Shown here: one piece after another, positions 5,446 through 24,067 of the stretch
Layout of the letters: each line of letters begins with the position of its first letter
Numbering within the stretch: the stretch's first letter is position 1
Origin: a virus
Taxonomy: Duplodnaviria > Heunggongvirae > Uroviricota > Caudoviricetes
Reading direction: 5' to 3' (one strand)
DNA length: 24,643 bases
IMG/VR virus record: IMGVR_UViG_2778261316_000001
Location: 1 to 24,643 of that record
The notes under the pieces: generated by a model
What the model saw: the letters and a program-made list of their open reading frames with translations, nothing else
Databases searched by the model: none
What the model was told of the DNA's origin: nothing
Position numbers and translations under genes: made by a program

Positions 5446-6156
5446 GTGAAATACAAATTACTACCATGCTTACTCGCGATATTCCTCACAGGATGTGACC
5501 GCACAGAGGTAACACTTTCATTTACCCCTGAGATGGCCAGTTTCTCTAATGAATTCGATTTTGATCCGCTGCGTGGTCCGGTAAAAGATTTCACTCAGAC
5601 ATTAATGGATGAGCAAGGTGAAGTGACGAAACGTGTTTCTGGGACTTTGTCGGAAGAAGGCTGTTTTGATTCACTCGAATTACTGGATCTGGAAAATAAT
5701 ACCGTGGTCGCTCTGGTACTGGACGCCAATTATTACCGTGATGCCGAGACGCTGGAGAAGAGAGTACGTTTACAGGGAAAATGCCAGCTAGCAGAATTAC
5801 CTTCTGCCGGGGTGAGTTGGGAAACCGATGATAATGGCTTCGTGATTAAAGCCAGCAGCAAACAAATGCAGATGGAATATCGCTATGATGATCAGGGTTA
5901 TCCGCTGGGTAAAACCACGAAAAGTAACGACAAAACATTATCTGTCAGCGCCACGCCATCAACGGATCCGATCAAAAAATTAGATTACACAGCGGTTACT
6001 TTACTGAATAATCAACGGGTTGGTAATGTAAAACAGAGCTGTGAATATGACAGTCACGCTAATCCGGTGGACTGTCAGCTAATCATTGTTGATGAAGGAG
6101 TAAAACCCGCCGTCGAACGGGTTTACACCATTAAAAATACGATCGATTATTATTAA
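5446..6156 (+). CDS. ynfC: YnfC, UPF0257 lipoprotein, 236 aa
   Basis: (V)KYKLLPCLLAIFLTGC lipobox; GTG start at 5446 gives the K-12 length; conserved position between ynfD and speG. Confidence 0.85.
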   Translation: MKYKLLPCLLAIFLTGCDRTEVTLSFTPEMASFSNEFDFDPLRGPVKDFTQTLMDEQGEVTKRVSGTLSEEGCFDSLELLDLENNTVVALVLDANYYRDAETLEKRVRLQGKCQLAELPSAGVSWETDDNGFVIKASSKQMQMEYRYDDQGYPLGKTTKSNDKTLSVSATPSTDPIKKLDYTAVTLLNNQRVGNVKQSCEYDSHANPVDCQLIIVDEGVKPAVERVYTIKNTIDYY

Positions 6157-14949: not shown

Positions 14950-15002
14950 GGGCGGCAGAGCAGTCACGGAGTAAAACTGATACCGCCAAACGTCACCAGA
15001 AA
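14950..15002 (-). ncRNA. dicF: DicF small RNA (53 nt) with intrinsic terminator
   Basis: Reverse complement reads TTTCTGGTGACGTTTGGCGGTATCAGTTTTACTCCGTGACTGCTCTGCCGCCC followed by TTTTT, identical to the recalled K-12 DicF sequence. Confidence 0.9.
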
Positions 15003-16761: not shown

Positions 16762-17266
16762 ACAGGCTCGTGAGGCTCTGGATGCCTGGATATGTCGACC
16801 AGGAATGACACAGGAGCAGGCGACGATATTAATCACTGAAGCATTCTGGGCTTTGAAAGAGCGCCCGAACATCGATGTTCAGCGTGTCACAGATGAAGGT
16901 GGCGCGGTTGATCAGCGAGCGCTTGGTGTTAATCGAGTGAAGATATTCGAACGCTGGAAGGCTATCGACACCAGGGATAAGCGTGAAAAGTTCACGGCGC
17001 TAGTGCCTGCGATTATGGAGGCTATCCGGATTAGTGATTTCAGGTTGTATCGTGAAATTACTGACGGAAAAAGCATCACGTGCATGATCGCCGGGTTAAA
17101 CAAAGAATATGGCGATGTGGTGGAGTCCGGACTGCTTTTTGCTGATCCTGCCGTAGTGGATCGTGAAACTGACGAACTTATAGAAAAAGCAATTGCTTTC
17201 AAGCTTGCGTATCGACAGCAATACCAACAAAAAGCTGGATGGAATTATGAGCCTTCTTTTTGCTGA
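16745..17266 (+). CDS. Hypothetical prophage protein, 173 aa, in the cII/YdaT position
   Basis: ORF overlapping the dicC end and the replication gene start; no motif recognised. Confidence 0.5.
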   Translation: MKITPEQAREALDAWICRPGMTQEQATILITEAFWALKERPNIDVQRVTDEGGAVDQRALGVNRVKIFERWKAIDTRDKREKFTALVPAIMEAIRISDFRLYREITDGKSITCMIAGLNKEYGDVVESGLLFADPAVVDRETDELIEKAIAFKLAYRQQYQQKAGWNYEPSFC

Positions 17267-18190
17267 ACGCCCACTGGTTATAAACACGCAGCTGGCAATG
17301 AAAATTGGCTTAAACGAAGCCATTGTTTTGCAACAACTGCACTACTGGTTGAGAGATACCAACTCCGGCATGGAATGTGATGGTGTTCGCTGGATTTATA
17401 ACACAACGGAACAATGGCTGGAACAGTTCCCATTCTGGTCAGAGTCAACGTTAAAGCGCGCGTTTGCAAGTCTGAAAACGCTGGGGCTTTTGCGTTGTGA
17501 AAAGCTCAATAAATCAAAGCGCGATATGACCAATTTCTACTTTTAGATGGTGGCAAATTGAGCGAATCCATCGGTTCAAAATGCGCCGCTCCATCAGGTC
17601 AAAATGACACGATGGAAGAGGTCAAAATGAAACGCTCCATTGGTTCAAAACGACCCAATGTCATCGGGTCAAAATGGCCTGATGATCTTACAGAGAATAC
17701 AACAGAGATTACTACAGAGAATAAAAACACTTTTCGTCCGGAAGCTTCGCAACCGGACCCGCAGACGACTGAACAGGATTCTTTAACCCGGAACTCCGAC
17801 GCGGTTGTGTTTAGTGCGAAAAAACGCCAGTGGGGTAGCAGGGAGGATTTGGCGTGTGCGCAGTGGATCTGGGGGCGGATCGTGGGTCTCTACGAACAGG
17901 CAGCCAGTGATGATGGCGAGATCATGCGACCAAAAGAGCCTAACTGGACTGCCTGGGCCAATGACGTGCGCACAATGCGGATGCTGGATGGCAGAAGCCA
18001 CAGACAAATTTGCGAAATGTTTGGTCGGGTTCAGCGAGATCCATTCTGGGTAAAAAACATCATGAGCCCGTCAAAGCTCCGCGAAAAATGGGACGAACTG
18101 GTCATCCGCCTGGGACGTTCACCTGTACAGCGTTGTGTTAATCATATTTCTGAACCGGATACAGAAATTCCGCCTGGTTTCAGAGGATAA
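17247..18190 (+). pseudogene. Phage replication initiator (O-like) split into two frames at a T-run, with origin iterons inside
   Basis: N-terminal ~100 aa (MSLLFAERPLVINTQLAMKIGLNEAIVLQQLHYWL...) in frame 0 ends at 17546; continuation in another frame from about 17513/17558 to 18190; frames meet at ctacTTTTagatgg. Confidence 0.55.
17562..17680. repeat. Five iterons (consensus TCCATYGGTTCAAAATG) at 23-24 bp spacing, followed by an A+T-rich stretch: candidate prophage replication origin
   Basis: CAAAATG/CAAAACG cores at 17577, 17600, 17623, 17646, 17670; downstream acagagaatacaacagagattactacagagaataaaaac. Confidence 0.65.
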
Positions 18191-18230
18191 GTGTTGATTT
18201 CAGGTCATGAGGTAATTTTAAGGGGGACTT

Positions 18231-18653
18231 GTGGCAAAAGTTTTTACACAAGAAGAGCGGGAAAAAATTAAATGGCAGGTGGTGGAACTCGTGCGCCAGA
18301 GCGGCCGTGAGACGTTACGGCAACTGGAAGCTAAAACAGGTGCGACTAGATATCTGATGAGCGTTCTTGCCAGAGAGCTGGTAGCCAGTGGCGATGTATA
18401 CAACTCCGGCTACGGGTTATTCCCCTCTGAACAGGCGCGTAAGGACTGGCAAAACGCCCGCAAAAAACTCTCGAGGGCAAAGGTGAAGAAACCTGCTGTG
18501 GTTGATCCGGACCTTATCTGGTCATCACCTGACGGAGAAATACGTCGCTACGACAGTCGCCTAAACATAATCTGTCGCGAGTGCCGGAAGAGCGAAGTTA
18601 TGCAGCGCATACTGGCTTTCTATCAGGGTAATTTTCAGGACGTGGCGCAGTGA
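18231..18653 (+). CDS. Hypothetical prophage protein, 140 aa (GTG start)
   Basis: ORF after the replication gene, overlapping the methyltransferase start (GTGA); basic, with a CxxC pair (CRECRK). Confidence 0.4.
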   Translation: MAKVFTQEEREKIKWQVVELVRQSGRETLRQLEAKTGATRYLMSVLARELVASGDVYNSGYGLFPSEQARKDWQNARKKLSRAKVKKPAVVDPDLIWSSPDGEIRRYDSRLNIICRECRKSEVMQRILAFYQGNFQDVAQ

Positions 18654-19139
18654 GTGCACCGGCAACCATTCTTGATATGTGCTGTGGCAGCCGCATGTTC
18701 TGGTTCGATAAGTCTGACAAACGGGCGATATTCAGCGATATCAGAAAAGAAGGATACACATTACGCAATGGGAGACGCTTGATTATCAGCCCTGACATTA
18801 TCGCAGATTTTCGTGCATTATCATTTGCAGACGCATCTTTTTCGATGGTTGTATTAGACCCTCCGCATCTTGAGCGTGTTGGTGATAACGCCTGGATGGG
18901 AAAGAAATATGGACGGCTGAATAAAGATGCCTGGCGTGATGATTTGCGACAGAGATTTAAAGAAGCTTTTCGGGTGTTGAGGCCGCACGGCGTTCTGATT
19001 TTTTAATGGAATGAAACGCAAATACCGGTAAGCCAGATTCTGGCACTGACAGATAGAAAGCCTGTTATCTGTCAACGAACAGGGAAAAAACGATAAAACC
19101 CACTGGATTATTTTTATGAAAGAGGCATCCAGTGAGTAG
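18650..19139 (+). pseudogene. Phage DNA methyltransferase (DPPH motif) disrupted by an in-frame TAA and a frameshift in an A-run
   Basis: ILDMCCGSR (motif I-like) and VVLDPPH (motif IV); in-frame TAA at 19004-19006 inside ...GVLIF*WNETQIPVSQ...; reading shifts frame in AAAAAA at 19085-19090 to continue ...NDKTHWIIFMKEASSE. Confidence 0.6.
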
Positions 19140-19616
19140 ATTCGTAAGGTTACAGATACGTATATCTGAATAATTAAATTCAGTTCTGTAAATAAAACTT
19201 AATCCTTAACCGGATGGATTTCTGCACCCTCAGAACATCAGGAGGCCGCCCGAAAGGGCGGTAGTGAAATGCGAAAGTTCAAAATTATTATTGAAACGGA
19301 AATAGCTGGTGGAGATTTTGAGGATGTATTCGAAGTGGACGATGACGCAACACCTGATGAAATTCATGACGGAGCATAAGAAATTTTCTTTAACTACTGC
19401 AATTACTCATACCACGAAATAAAAGACGATGAGGAAGAACAAAGTGGCTGATTTTTGTTCAGCTAAATATAACATCAGTTTTGAAGAGCGGGATGAACTA
19501 TTAATGGACTATGGTGAATTACGCGGTGGAAGTGCTGCTGATGTCGAATCCTAGCGTGATGACTATGAAGCGGGAAAAACTCCGGTCGAAGCATATTGTG
19601 ATGAGTGGGGCGATGA

Positions 19617-19871
19617 ATGAGCGAGATTAATTATCAGGAAGGGCATGAAACGGCGGGGCAAGCAAAACCAGTGGCATGGCGATATCGCTACGTGAAAAAA
19701 GCGTTACGGACTTTCAGGGGAAGTAGTGGTCTGGTGACTGGAAATATGTACCGAAAAAAGAGGATTGTAACGACAGGCCGAACTATCAAATTCAGGCCTT
19801 ATTCACTGCCTCACCAGTCCCGGTTACATCAGAAGAACTGGTTAAAGCTGTGCACTTTTATGAACAACTAA
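19617..19871 (+). CDS. Hypothetical protein, 84 aa, possibly frameshifted
   Basis: Track ORF; an alternative frame from about 19700 gives a more protein-like continuation (WKYVPKKEDCNDRPNYQIQALFTASPVPVTSEELVKAVHFYEQLKREN) without a start codon. Confidence 0.3.
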   Translation: MSEINYQEGHETAGQAKPVAWRYRYVKKALRTFRGSSGLVTGNMYRKKRIVTTGRTIKFRPYSLPHQSRLHQKNWLKLCTFMNN

Positions 19872-20157
19872 AACGCGAAAATCCACCAACATCCGGCAAC
19901 TAGATTAATGGATTAACTATGTCGGTTAAACGACCAGCCAACTGAAAAAGCGGAAACCTGATTACAGGTTGCCAGATAAGGCAATGAGCTACCTGGCGCG
20001 GAACGGGCTGATAAGTATGGGGAATGTTTTACGATGAACCTTTAGACTAAAGAGTTTGTAACGCTATGTAAGTGATTTTTTCTGGTTTAGATATTTATAT
20101 GTCCGGCCAAATTGAGGTGTGTTTAAATGTAATTGCACATTGATTGTAGGAGGAATA

Positions 20158-20337
20158 ATGAAAAACGCATTGCAGTTTTTGTTTGTTGCGTTCTGGTTGT
20201 TCGCATCATGTATGCCCATCATCTTCACAGCAAGGTATATGGAAAAAGTTGATGTTTTGATATTAATATTTGGATATATAAATGCCCTTTTTTTAGGGGT
20301 GTTCATGGCGGTCATGTGCATTGAATACTGGCGGTAA
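20158..20337 (+). CDS. Small two-helix membrane protein, 59 aa
   Basis: Strong RBS (TAGGAGGAATAATG), A+T-rich upstream region; MKNALQFLFVAFWLFASCMPIIFTARYMEKVDVLILIFGYINALFLGVFMAVMCIEYWR. Confidence 0.4.
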   Translation: MKNALQFLFVAFWLFASCMPIIFTARYMEKVDVLILIFGYINALFLGVFMAVMCIEYWR

Positions 20338-20643
20338 ATACAGCGAACTCCATTGGTTTAGTTGGATATTTACTGTGCTGGACAAAAACGGTTTGCGGGG
20401 AAATCTTAGTTAAGTAGAATGACTGCGGGTGCTTGAGGCTATCTGCCTCGGGCATGGACACCAACGGCAGATAGAGAAAAGCCCCAGTTAACATTACGCG
20501 TCCTGCAAGACGCTTAACATTAATCTGAGGCCAATTTCATGCTAGACACATGTAGGTTAGCCTCTTACGTGCCGAAAGGCACGGAGAAGCAGGCTATTGT
20601 TAACACCAAGCTGTAATGTCCCCTTTGAACCATTCTAAAATGT

Positions 20644-20670
20644 CCCCAGACAATTCTCTGGGGGATTTTT
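20644..20670 (+). terminator. Intrinsic terminator-like hairpin (CCCCAG...CTGGGG + TTTTT) immediately upstream of the transposase start
   Basis: 6-bp GC-rich stem, 8-nt loop, then GATTTTT; ends 1 nt before the ATG at 20672. Confidence 0.4.
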
Positions 20671-20671
20671 C

Positions 20672-22012
20672 ATGATCAAAGAGACTGTTACGATGAGTCA
20701 TAAGGAACTCCACCGACTTCAGATTATTCAGGAGTCAATTAATCGACATATTACTCAGGAACAAGCTGCGGCACGCATTGGCATTTCTATTCGGCAGGTT
20801 AAACGTCTGGTGCAACGGTATAGAAATGAAGGGCCTTCTGGTCTGGTTTCCCACCGACGTGGAAAGCGTCCTAATAATTCCTTTTCTACTGAATTCAGAG
20901 CAACAGTAATTTCACTCCTCAAAGGCCGTTACGCTGATTTTGGACCTACGTTTGCGTGCGAAAAATTGCGCGAGATACACGGTTTATCTTTATCCGTTGA
21001 AACTCTCAGAAAGTGGATGATAGAAGAGGGGTTATGGCGTGAACGCCGTCGTAAAATTGCCCGTATATATCAACGCCGCATGCGACGACCATCTTACGGT
21101 GAACTGATCCAGATTGATGGCTCACCTCATGACTGGTTTGAAAATCGAGGCCCCAGATGTACACTGATCGTTTTCATTGATGATGCCACCAGTGCGTTGA
21201 TGGCGTTGCGTTTTGTGCCTGCTGAAACAACCCGGGCTTACATGGAAACCCTCCGGGGTTACCTTAATGATCATGGCGTACCGCTCGCTCTCTACTCTGA
21301 TAGACACAGTATATTCAGGGTAAATAACCCAGAGCGGGAAGGTGAGCTGACCCAGTTCACTCGTGCGATAAAGACACTGGGCATCGAGCCAATCCATGCC
21401 AACAGCCCGCAGGCAAAAGGGCGGGTAGAGCGCGCCAATCAGACACTACAGGACAGGCTGGTCAAAGAAATGCGGCTTCAGAATATCAGTGATATTGAAA
21501 CAGCAAATGCATGGTTGCCGACCTTTATTGAAGCCTATAACAACCGGTTCGCTACGTCGCCTCGTACTACTGATAATGCTCATCTTGATGTGCACCATTC
21601 TGAAGAGGAACTGGGTTATATCTTCAGCCTACAGGCGAAGCGCGTTCTGTCTAAAAATCTCACTTTCCAGTACAAAAGCAGTGCGTTTCAGGTACGCAGT
21701 GAGAGCCGGGGATATCGACTTAGGCATTCGGTTGTTACTGTATGCGAGAACTTTGACGGTGAAATTAACGTTCTGTATGACGGGAAAGCGCTGGGCTGGG
21801 AAAAGTATGTTGATGGCCCGGAGCCTATACCACTGGATGATGAAAAGAGTGTCCATGAACGAGTGGATAATGCCCGTATTGATTTACGCTCAAAATACTA
21901 TGTTAAACCTAAAGCTGACCATCCCTGGCTTACGCGCCGAACGCAAAGTCATCAGCAAGTTAAGCCCCCGAAGTTACCTAAAAAGAAGCCTGATCCCGAT
22001 AAAAAAGATTGA
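20672..22012 (+). CDS. DDE transposase (HTH N-terminus plus rve integrase-core domain), 446 aa; IS481/ISNCY-like
   Basis: N-terminal HTH (ITQEQAAARIGISIRQVKRLVQRY), catalytic core with D...D...E pattern (IQIDGSPHDWF..., LYSDRHSIF, ...RVERANQTLQ), basic C-tail. Family assignment from memory. Confidence 0.8.
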   Translation: MIKETVTMSHKELHRLQIIQESINRHITQEQAAARIGISIRQVKRLVQRYRNEGPSGLVSHRRGKRPNNSFSTEFRATVISLLKGRYADFGPTFACEKLREIHGLSLSVETLRKWMIEEGLWRERRRKIARIYQRRMRRPSYGELIQIDGSPHDWFENRGPRCTLIVFIDDATSALMALRFVPAETTRAYMETLRGYLNDHGVPLALYSDRHSIFRVNNPEREGELTQFTRAIKTLGIEPIHANSPQAKGRVERANQTLQDRLVKEMRLQNISDIETANAWLPTFIEAYNNRFATSPRTTDNAHLDVHHSEEELGYIFSLQAKRVLSKNLTFQYKSSAFQVRSESRGYRLRHSVVTVCENFDGEINVLYDGKALGWEKYVDGPEPIPLDDEKSVHERVDNARIDLRSKYYVKPKADHPWLTRRTQSHQQVKPPKLPKKKPDPDKKD

Positions 22013-22404
22013 AACCAAGATCGATTCGGTTGAGTGCATATCCATTCATAGGGTAGATTCTTAAGTCGCGTTTCTGGTGTTCATTTTCGGGTGGTTTGTT
22101 ACTTGTTTTACCGGGGATATGCCAGAAACGCGCTGAGTCAGTCTGGGCGGTGCGCGTAATGAGGCGTTATGGTAAATAGCCTATGCTAATGTCCGCTAAG
22201 AGCAAGAAGCGGAAGTTGGCAGTTTTGTGGACTGTCCCCACAAAAGTGACTACAGAAATAGTTGCAATTCATAATTGATCATGGGTTGTCAGTTAAACTC
22301 GTGGCGATTTAAATAGACTAATTGGGAGTGCGTCCATTACTTATATCTTGTAATGTTAACTATCAGAAATGATACAAAGATAATATGTCTTTAAAGAAAA
22401 GGCT

Positions 22405-22434
22405 GATGGCGAAAAGTGGCCCGATGAGGGCCAC
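22405..22434 (-). terminator. Intrinsic terminator downstream of flxA (GTGGCCC...GGGCCAC + U tract)
   Basis: 7-bp GC-rich inverted repeat 15 nt after the flxA stop, followed on the minus strand by UUUUC. Confidence 0.45.
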
Positions 22435-22448
22435 AATACGGCTGTCAC

Positions 22449-22781
22449 TTAGACGTAAATATCAATGGTGCCAGCGGTATTTGTATCGTCTTTTTTCTCT
22501 TCTTTTTTATCAGGCTGAACTGTCGCGTCTTCATTCTTTTTCTCTGCCTGCTGCCTTAACAACTGCTCCAGTTGAGCCCAGAGGCTTTCAATTTGCTTCT
22601 GTACCAATGCAGCCATTTCTTTTTTCTGCTGTGTCGTCATCCCCTCTTCCGATGAGATTTTCCCAAGCTTTTCAGTCAGCACCTGAATTTGTCTTGTGAT
22701 TTTGGCTATTTCTGATGTTCCTTCCGGGGCGGAGTTGTTTGAAATAACGGTTGAGGTATTTCCCTGAATTGTGACAGACAT
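22449..22781 (-). CDS. flxA: FlxA (FliA-regulated prophage protein), 110 aa
   Basis: Full-length match to recalled FlxA (MSVTIQGNTSTVISNNSAPEGTSEIAKITRQIQVLTEKLG...). Confidence 0.9.
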   Translation of the reverse strand: MSVTIQGNTSTVISNNSAPEGTSEIAKITRQIQVLTEKLGKISSEEGMTTQQKKEMAALVQKQIESLWAQLEQLLRQQAEKKNEDATVQPDKKEEKKDDTNTAGTIDIYV

Positions 22782-22804
22782 AGATTTCTCCTTTTAAAAA
22801 AGCA

Positions 22805-22832
22805 CTATCGGCATGAACAAAAAAATCTTTAA
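22805..22832 (-). promoter_or_regulatory. Sigma-28 (FliA) promoter of flxA: TAAAGA-N14-GCCGATAG
   Basis: On the minus strand TAAAGAtttttttgttcatGCCGATAG lies about 25 nt upstream of the flxA ATG; matches class-3 flagellar promoter consensus TAAAGTTT-N11-GCCGATAA. Confidence 0.55.
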
Positions 22833-22983
22833 TCGTATTTCTTGTGTCATTAATTGTTTGATGTTCAGATTGTTTTCCTCGCGGGCTGGCGCGCCTCAGA
22901 AAGTAAAGCTTGTTGACAGGGGTAAACGTTCGGCAATAATTTTCTGCCGCATGCGGGTGTTGCATAAAACGTGTTACGTTCCT

Positions 22984-23289
22984 TTATCGACAGGTCAGGT
23001 CACCGCTCACCCGCCGACGAGAAAGCAACACTGACATGCTAAAGCAAAAAATAGATGAATAAGTTGAGTTGTGCATATGTAGCCTGACCGTCACAAAGTA
23101 TATGGTGTCTGTACCAGTAAGATGATGGCCGGACTCTTTAAAAACGAGCTGACCTGCACAATACAGGATGGACTTAGCAATGGCTGCTCCTGGCAGAAAG
23201 CGGACAGTGATCACCGTTCTTACGACTACTTTCTGACTTCCTTCGTGACTTGCCCTAAGCATGTTGTAGTGCGATACTTGTAATGACAT
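22984..23289 (-). CDS. ydfV: Possible YdfV-like prophage protein, 101 aa
   Basis: Assigned only by position (between flxA and relB) and by size equal to K-12 YdfV; sequence has odd composition and may be non-coding. Confidence 0.3.
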   Translation of the reverse strand: MSLQVSHYNMLRASHEGSQKVVVRTVITVRFLPGAAIAKSILYCAGQLVFKESGHHLTGTDTIYFVTVRLHMHNSTYSSIFCFSMSVLLSRRRVSGDLTCR

Positions 23290-23302
23290 TTGTAATTACA
23301 AG
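23277..23302. promoter_or_regulatory. relBE operator/promoter: CTTGTAAT-N10-ATTACAAG with internal palindrome TTGTAATTACAA
   Basis: Inverted repeats 12 nt upstream of the relB ATG; RelB-RelE autoregulation through such operators is established. Confidence 0.5.
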
Positions 23303-23313
23303 AGGTGTAAGAC

Positions 23314-23553
23314 ATGGGTAGCATTAACCTGCGTATTGACGATGAACTTAAAGCGCGTTCTTACGCCGCGCTTGAAAAAATGGGTGTAACTCCTTCTGAA
23401 GCGCTTCGTCTCATGCTCGAGTATATCGCTGACAATGAACGCTTGCCGTTCAAACAGACACTCCTGAGTGATGAAGATGCTGAACTTGTGGAGATAGTGA
23501 AAGAACGGCTTCGTAATCCTAAGCCAGTACGTGTGACGCTGGATGAACTCTGA
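23314..23553 (+). CDS. relB: RelB antitoxin, 79 aa
   Basis: Near-identical to recalled RelB (MGSINLRIDDELKARSYA...PKPVRVTLDEL). Confidence 0.92.
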   Translation: MGSINLRIDDELKARSYAALEKMGVTPSEALRLMLEYIADNERLPFKQTLLSDEDAELVEIVKERLRNPKPVRVTLDEL

Positions 23554-23840
23554 TGGCGTATTTTCTGGATTTTGACGAGCGGGCACTAAAGGAATGGCGA
23601 AAGCTGGGCTCGACGGTACGTGAACAGTTGAAAAAGAAGCTGGTTGAAGTACTTGAGTCACCCCGGATTGAAGCAAACAAGCTCCGTGGTATGCCTGATT
23701 GTTACAAGATTAAGCTCCGGTCTTCAGGCTATCGCCTTGTATACCAGGTTATAGACGAGAAAGTTGTCGTTTTCGTGATTTCTGTTGGGAAAAGAGAACG
23801 CTCGGAAGTATATAGCGAGGCGGTCAAACGCATTCTCTGA
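23553..23840 (+). CDS. relE: RelE mRNA interferase toxin, 95 aa
   Basis: Matches recalled RelE (MAYFLDFDERALKEWRKLGSTVREQLKKKL...); start overlaps the relB stop. Confidence 0.92.
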   Translation: MAYFLDFDERALKEWRKLGSTVREQLKKKLVEVLESPRIEANKLRGMPDCYKIKLRSSGYRLVYQVIDEKVVVFVISVGKRERSEVYSEAVKRIL

Positions 23841-23911
23841 ACCAAAGCATGACATCTCTGTTTCGCACCGAAGGTGACACTTCTGCTTTGCGTTGACAGG
23901 AGAAGCAGGCT

Positions 23912-24067
23912 ATGAAGCAGCAAAAGGCGATGTTAATCGCCCTGATCGTCATCTGTTTAACCGTCATAGTGACGGCACTGGTAACGAGGAAAGACCTCTG
24001 CGAGGTACGAATCCGAACCGGCCAGACGGAGGTCGCTGTCTTCACAGCTTACGAACCTGAGGAGTAA
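23912..24067 (+). CDS. hokD: HokD (RelF) Hok-family membrane toxin, 51 aa
   Basis: MKQQKAMLIALIVICLTVIVTALVTRKDLCEVRIRTGQTEVAVFTAYEPEE, found by manual translation; typical Hok architecture. Confidence 0.85.
   Translation: MKQQKAMLIALIVICLTVIVTALVTRKDLCEVRIRTGQTEVAVFTAYEPEE

Follow-up and report, generated by a model that had tools for sequence, protein, structure and literature searches.

ORF59, a probable small membrane-hairpin gene adjoining hok/sok in Qin-type prophages of Escherichia coli

The DNA stretch described here (the window; 24,643 nt, positions 1 to 24,643 of IMG/VR record IMGVR_UViG_2778261316_000001) is a Qin-type lambdoid prophage of Escherichia coli integrated beside rspAB. 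It carries a 59-codon open reading frame (ORF), called ORF59, that starts with an ATG at 20158 and ends with a TAA at 20335-20337 (product MKNALQFLFVAFWLFASCMPIIFTARYMEKVDVLILIFGYINALFLGVFMAVMCIEYWR). Comparison with a distant paralog indicates that ORF59 truly encodes a protein and that purifying selection has acted on it between lineages, and it is held with high confidence to be a real gene for a membrane hairpin. The family is previously undescribed and restricted to Escherichia and Shigella prophages and their remnants; it is new and taxonomically narrow, and of a familiar kind. The expression route and mode of action proposed below are a tentative suggestion, whereas the overall account, which joins the gene to that route and action, is considered somewhat probable.

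The coding status of ORF59 is carried by a second lineage, which came to light when 1.84 billion proteins were scanned with HMMER and a profile search was then run. Close copies cannot decide the question because all copies of lineage A, to which the window belongs, in complete genomes are at least ~98% identical. The members of lineage B (P0041, P0046, and variants) are exactly 59 amino acids long, 41% identical to lineage A, and align with it free of gaps from Met1 to a C-terminal I-E-x-W-R, so that start and stop are shared. DNA similarity between the two loci is restricted to ORF59, and the sequence 5' of ORF59 in lineage A is unrelated to that 5' of the paralog. Identity at codon positions 1, 2, and 3 is 0.58, 0.71, and 0.48, respectively, with pN (nonsynonymous differences per site) of 0.34 and pS (synonymous) of 0.72, giving a Jukes-Cantor-corrected ratio of ~0.19. 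When the 73 differences between the lineages were placed neutrally in 20,000 simulated runs, the frame stayed open in 2.7% (548 runs); the observed pN/pS was reached in none of these 548 and the observed amino acid identity in three. It is this comparison (ORF-confined similarity, codon pattern, pN/pS, and simulation) that identifies ORF59 as a real gene, and not the length of the ORF, since an ATG-initiated ORF of at least 59 amino acids occurs in 8.9% of shuffles of 20040-20430.

Lineage B occupies the Rac attachment region (ttcA-uspF), where it sits in a decayed remnant of a Qin-like nin region (locus L010, 5293-6600; sequence type 131 (ST131) and others). The 3' piece of DUF977 in this remnant is 74.5% identical, and the hok fragment, which has lost its 5' end, is 80.6% identical. 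ORF59 is intact there while the adjacent DUF977 gene is truncated and hok is broken, and the order DUF977, ORF59, hok is common to both lineages in the Qin-type nin region. An in-frame TAA lies five codons 5' of the lineage-B ATG; a GTG-extended form of 72 amino acids was therefore excluded, and the 59-amino acid form is the conserved one.

The 59-amino acid ORF, the AGGAGG, and the A+T-rich upstream region of the original prediction were all recovered (Table 1). The arrangement AGGAGG-N4-ATG occurs once in the window against 0.19 expected, and the Shine-Dalgarno (SD) sequence is polymorphic, A20151G changing it to AGGGGG in 76 of 197 copies. GC content is 0.33-0.375 across 20020-20380, an island of roughly 33-37% GC, compared with 0.43-0.50 in the flanks, and the + strand is T-rich. 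No sigma-70-like promoter was detected on either strand in a scan of 19500-20800, and no + strand terminator was found between the replication genes and ORF59 or between ORF59 and the hok promoter-like site. RNA folding of the region 5' of ORF59 is no better than that of shuffles (z=0.40). The antisense RNA that was proposed as something to look for was not seen over ORF59 among known RNA families: 20040-20340 has no Rfam match, the nearest being sok at 20427-20598, and the known toxin with an antisense RNA in this region is the neighboring hok/sok. A novel antisense RNA, and with it a generic type I toxin arrangement, is conceivable for ORF59.

The two predicted hydrophobic helices are borne out by hydropathy, with a best 19-residue Kyte-Doolittle mean of 2.39 and a grand average of hydropathy (GRAVY) of 1.27, and by an AlphaFold2 model of a helical hairpin (H2-26 and H28-58; mean predicted local distance difference test score 74). 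The hydrophobic helices are joined by a loop of ~7 residues; the second has a G-xxx-A-xxx-G face, and past it the protein ends in the conserved I-E-x-W-R, with a tail of four residues in the window (E-Y-W-R, net charge 0). The signature shared by lineages A and B consists of 59 amino acids, two hydrophobic helices, W13, S-C-x-P-I-I-x-T, F-G-x-x-N-A-L-x-x-G, and the C-terminal I-E-x-W-R. A DNA pattern made from these motifs matched both lineages and no other sequence in the fetched and IMG/VR loci.

The statement that the protein has no recognizable family also holds. No match was obtained in Pfam, PHROGs, NCBIfam, or PADLOC (E<=10 or E<=1), nor with the family profile against PDB sequences. 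Foldseek of the AlphaFold2 hairpin against BFVD and PDB returned only generic helical hairpins, all with E>1, including BFVD entries named holin at E=4.5 and E=5.9 only. The best family match, DUF4212 with P0046 (E=0.071; 13.9 bits against a cutoff of 30), was taken as hydrophobic noise, and a candidate relative, P0043, was rejected as a spurious repeat protein. Lineages other than A and B were found neither by phmmer (1.84 billion proteins) nor by the profile search (5.8 billion), and tblastn of phage genomes and a degenerate-motif DNA scan of IMG/VR likewise gave A and B only.

A search with a 241-nt region placed lineage A in 1567 of 5426 complete E. coli genomes (29%), and tblastn placed it in three deposited phage genomes; lineage B occurs in 1045 of the 5426 (19%), ST131 included. 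Literature searches found no paper describing ORF59, and the RefSeq rows inspected contain no feature over ORF59 of either lineage; other sources name it "hypothetical" or "membrane protein". K-12 MG1655 (NC_000913.3) has a 4.8-kb deletion corresponding to window 17025-21827, by which ORF59, the hok leader, and the left end of the downstream transposon were lost. Owing to this deletion, K-12 ydfX is an N-terminal stub of a YdaT-family gene and ydfW is the C-terminal 49 amino acids of an IS1202-family transposase. In three further genomes (one bovine), the left end of the transposon abuts a DUF977 gene, which suggests that a deletion beside this insertion sequence (IS) removed ORF59 and the hok leader there.

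As to its proposed role, the ORF59 protein would insert in the inner membrane with both termini cytoplasmic. Such an N-in/C-in hairpin is favored by the basic N-terminus (MRK) and acidic loop of lineage B and by the terminal E-x-W-R common to the two lineages. Expression would most likely occur by read-through of the early-right operon transcript on derepression or induction, helped by the strong SD, because neither a promoter-like site nor a terminator of its own was detected and ORF59 shares the orientation of that operon (dicC, O, ..., Q). The conserved residues S17, C18, P20, and T24 in the first helix and G39, N42, A43, and G47 in the second point to specific packing between helices, whether of the protein with itself or with an inner-membrane protein of the host. 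The product may then be a dispensable accessory factor that modulates a membrane process, and a role of the exclusion or protection type is weakly preferred as somewhat likelier than killing.

Several observations weigh against this account. The SD is good, and to that extent the gene looks strongly expressed, as had been supposed, but the lack of a promoter-like site, the low GC, the rare codons (three ATA, one AGG, and one CGG), and the AGGGGG variant speak against strong expression. The nine substitutions among the 197 lineage-A copies are all nonsynonymous, with none synonymous, and variable sites are 10/180 in ORF59 against 20/207 in the flanks, a difference that is not significant (p=0.18); polymorphism being so sparse, recent constraint in lineage A is not demonstrable. 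A divergent copy at locus L007 has lost 1 nt at three places, carries a 3-nt insertion, and has a damaged SD, and truncated or interrupted variants of ORF59 exist, IS1 insertions among them. As the L007 copy is broken while its neighbors are intact, ORF59 is clearly dispensable. Moreover, no homology, structural match, or defense-model match backs any specific function, and for the toxin, holin, or superinfection-exclusion role originally put forward no family match was obtained, whether to holins, Hok/Gef, GhoT/OrtT, or T4-Imm-type proteins.

Many truncated protein variants diverge just past ...PIIFTA(R), at codons 25-29 (window ~20230-20245), and IS1 is present in several genomes within a 751-bp stretch around ORF59; these observations suggest an insertion or recombination hot spot inside ORF59 at codons 25-29.

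Another explanation, considered unlikely, is that ORF59 encodes a small membrane-damaging toxin of the GhoT/OrtT kind or a second toxic or helper component acting with Hok. GhoT and OrtT, the type V and orphan membrane toxins of E. coli, are ~57 amino acids long with two helices, and ORF59 resembles them in size and two-helix hydrophobic architecture. It also combines a strong SD with a promoter-less, A+T-rich, and probably silenced gene, and adjoins hok/sok in both lineages. Its G-xxx-A-xxx-G face and membrane-embedded Asn are of a kind that generally favors oligomerization. However, neither GhoT/OrtT nor Hok/Gef is matched in Pfam at E<=10, and neither an antitoxin-like gene nor an RNA family nor any unusual 5' RNA structure turned up for ORF59. 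Prophage hok loci elsewhere lack such an ORF. Lineage B has been kept intact in 1045 genomes though the neighboring hok is destroyed, and because of this a modulatory or protective role fits slightly better than killing.

It is improbable that ORF59 is a former gene, now functionless, that persists as a slowly decaying relic in cryptic prophages. The lack of synonymous substitutions in lineage A, a density of variable sites no lower than in the flanks, the frameshifted L007 copy, and the truncated and IS-interrupted variants are compatible with decay, as are the loss of ORF59 from K-12 without known consequence and the presence of a pseudogene directly 5' of it. Against this, only one of the ~200 IMG/VR copies of lineage A is frameshifted and more than 99% are intact in DNA of 37% GC, where stops arise easily; lineage B is intact among decayed neighbors, and ORF59 is present in deposited phage genomes. 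The replacements in lineage A are largely hydrophobic-for-hydrophobic (A16V, V31I, I37M, Y40H, M53T, and others).

The neighbor of ORF59 also needs to be redefined, as the gene was originally placed next to the IS. Between the two lie ~260 nt that contain a hok promoter-like site and the hok/sok leader, and the true neighbor is the hok/sok locus. The sok-model match (20427-20598) stops exactly at the expected hok ATG. A hok promoter at 20393-20420 is plausible from its hexamers; the site stands 7 nt before the start of the Rfam model, and the stricter promoter scan did not flag it. The mok frame (from 20539) continues into the transposon, and hokD lies 3.3 kb from its leader, beyond relBE and without its Sok target. 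In the loci L003, L004, and L007, the hok leader runs straight into the hokD coding sequence (CDS), and in IS-free genomes ORF59 is directly 5' of this intact leader and hokD. All but one of the 183 fetched loci (182) carry the hok leader after ORF59; of these 182, the leader leads directly into the hok CDS in 119 and into the IS in 61. There is a slim chance that ORF59 is a third functional component of the prophage hok/sok module, gating, buffering, or redirecting the insertion or toxicity of Hok or conferring immunity to it, a reading that would account for its position directly 5' of hok in two lineages only 41% identical. The linkage is most simply explained by co-inheritance of the module.

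Two further explanations concern the frame itself. That the true gene is the antisense 85-amino acid ORF, with ORF59 as its shadow, is very improbable: it is the longest ORF of the region and was annotated in place of ORF59 in PV340562, ON470612, and ON470619, as hypothetical or, at least once, as 'hornerin', but at the lineage-B locus the antisense frames are split into pieces of 27 and 33 amino acids while the + strand frame of 59 amino acids is intact, the codon-position pattern fits the + frame, and the ORF runs opposite to the operon. Hardly credible is the possibility, already raised in the original prediction, that ORF59 is a piece of a larger disrupted gene, such as the 3' part of the frameshifted pseudogene ending ~120 nt upstream, since the intact L007 version of that gene ends before the ORF59 region, both lineages have 59 codons with shared start and stop, the paralog has an in-frame stop upstream, and no longer homolog was found among the 1.84 billion proteins.

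Table 1. Coordinates of ORF59, its signals, and other features (window positions unless a locus is named).
Feature	Location	Strand	Remarks
ORF59, 59 codons and stop, two-helix membrane protein, lineage A	20158-20337	+	Sequence and paralog comparison
Shine-Dalgarno AGGAGG	20148-20153	+	4-nt spacer to ATG
A+T-rich upstream region	20040-20157	+	GC ~0.33-0.35; conserved along with ORF59 in lineage A
Hydrophobic helix 1, ~residues 4-25	20167-20232	+	Conserved W13, S17, C18, P20, I21, I22, T24
Hydrophobic helix 2, ~residues 33-55	20254-20322	+	Conserved F38, G39, N42, A43, L44, G47
Antisense ORF, 85 aa	20064-20321	-	Longest ORF of 20040-20430; rejected as gene
DicF small RNA	14950-15001	-	Rfam, 76.7 bits; canonical; upstream of dicB, as expected for Qin
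Frameshifted pseudogene, phrog_660 family	19617-20037	+	Prokaryotic Genome Annotation Pipeline (PGAP) annotation and PHROG matches; gene separate from ORF59
hok promoter-like hexamers	20393-20420	+	TTGCGG 20393-20398, 16-nt spacer, TAGAAT 20415-20420; read by eye
hok mRNA 5' leader with mok start and Sok-target region	20427-20597	+	Rfam RF01794 (sok), 104.1 bits, model positions 1-157
Left 15-bp target duplication GGAGAAGCAGGCTAT	20583-20597	.	Exact repeat
ISEsa1-like (IS1202-family) transposon, 3301 bp, TGT... ends	20598-23898	+	Cargo flxA, ydfV, relB, relE
Transposase gene	20672-22012	+	Within ISEsa1-like transposon
Right 15-bp target duplication GGAGAAGCAGGCTAT	23899-23913	.	Overlaps hokD ATG
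hokD CDS	23912-24067	+	Parted from leader by transposon
ISEsa1-like element on other loci	L217 2501-5801; L218 2501-5801; L219 from 4001		
Lineage-B remnant: integrase fragment	L010		
Lineage-B remnant: DUF977 3' end	L010 5347-5447		
Lineage-B remnant: ORF59 paralog	L010 6001-6180		Intact
Lineage-B remnant: hok CDS fragment	L010 6235-6296		With stop codon
Lineage-B remnant: ABC-3-family (PF00950) gene fragments	L010		

The gene map of the prophage is that of a Qin-type element. The order is integrase, excisionase, exonuclease, ydfD, dicB, DicF, ydfC/A, a dicA-like repressor, and dicC, followed by a YdaT-family gene, replication protein O, DUF977, a methyltransferase pseudogene, DUF7167, and the frameshifted pseudogene. 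ORF59 comes next, and after it an ISNCY/IS1202-like transposase, ydfW, flxA, ydfV, relBE, hokD, and rem. The phrog_660 gene 5' of ORF59 carries a frameshift in most genomes, the window included, and it is intact (151 amino acids) at L007 (3366-3821), the same locus that has the one frameshifted copy of ORF59. ORF59 thus occupies the accessory nin region, between the replication genes and hok and before the Q antiterminator, and its description as a small membrane-protein gene in a prophage accessory position was apt. At locus L001, the lysis genes essD, rrrQ, and rzpQ are ~10.5-12 kb beyond ORF59, past Q.

The transposon downstream is inserted exactly at the hokD start codon and has cut the leader from hokD. 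Its left end, TGTTAACACC..., and the reverse complement of its right end, TGTCAACGCA..., agree at ~22 of 30 positions, and subterminal TGTC-CC repeats are present at both ends. Full-length copies of the 3301-bp unit, at least 99.5% identical, occur on Salmonella, Enterobacter, and E. coli plasmids. On an IncF plasmid, the unit lies at the SD/ATG of another hok gene with the duplication GGAGAAGAAGGCCA, and on an IncI plasmid, at a pnd-type hok gene with the duplication TGGAGGGGCTATGAT. The IncF, IncI, and Qin hokD insertions have identical orientation and duplications of 14-15 bp; an IncHI2 plasmid carries a transposase variant of 91.8% identity that adjoins a further hok leader at this same position. 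As the duplications differ by site and match their own locus on both sides, the insertions at hok loci are independent and targeted, and the unit looks like an ISEsa1-like element with target specificity for hok loci. If so, relBE-hokD (relBEF) of K-12 would be the footprint of such an insertion, and the origin of this operon would be explained.

Published descriptions of the IS1202 family include TGT ends, target duplications that fall into three size classes (5-6, 15-17, and 27-28 bp), the carriage of passenger genes, and one subgroup that targets dif sites; ISEsa1 itself is 1609 bp long, with no duplication detected. No paper tying ISEsa1 to hok or relBE was found in literature searches. 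Where the 1609-bp ISEsa1 of ISfinder should end, locus L220 (~5620-5640) has a sequence like the right inverted repeat, ...CGTTTGGTTGACG, and the window (22190-22220) is degenerate. The 3.3-kb unit may thus have originated when the proximal right end was lost and a distal one, at 23898, was used in its place. At the loci L217 (1030-2399) and L219 (2531-3900), the ISEsa1-like element is preceded by an ISKpn8 transposase gene, which stops ~100 bp short of its left end, beside a hok leader remnant; at L217, the upstream edge of ISKpn8 has an Rfam sok match of its own.

The ISEsa1-like insertions at at least three hok-family loci, together with the related copy at a fourth hok leader, probably outweigh ORF59 in importance. 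For ORF59 itself, small-protein screens in K-12 could not detect the gene because MG1655 lacks it, and its recognition corrects wrong-strand phage annotations, redefines the local map, with the hok/sok locus as its neighbor, and adds a tractable candidate to the poorly understood phage-encoded small membrane proteins.

Compared with known systems, ORF59 is nearly equal in length to GhoT/OrtT and likewise has two hydrophobic helices, a short loop, and no soluble domain, but it differs in having no Pfam match at E<=10, in a library that presumably includes a GhoT/OrtT model, in lacking a GhoS-like partner gene, and in being prophage-borne and operon-internal. Hok/Gef proteins are also small, hydrophobic, and prophage-encoded, and ORF59 is physically linked to hok/sok in both lineages; however, Hok has one transmembrane helix followed by a Cys-containing tail in the periplasm, and its long leader is structured and includes mok and Sok, whereas ORF59 has two helices, no periplasmic domain, no structured leader, and no Hok/Gef match in Pfam. 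With the class II holins and pinholins (phage 21 S), it shares small size, phage origin, two hydrophobic helices, and small-residue faces. Unlike them, it lies before Q and not in the lysis cassette past Q, its short uncharged tail contrasts with their long charged C-terminal tail, and no Pfam or PHROG holin family matches it (E<=10). The exclusion proteins of the T4 Imm and HK97 gp15 types are, like ORF59, small phage-encoded inner-membrane proteins in accessory positions, although ORF59 has no sequence, structural, or PADLOC match to them and no evident lysogen-active promoter. A superinfection-exclusion moron is expressed in the lysogen from its own promoter and has its own terminator, neither of which was detected by the scans of 19500-20800, and the feature of ORF59 that is moron-like is its low-GC island.

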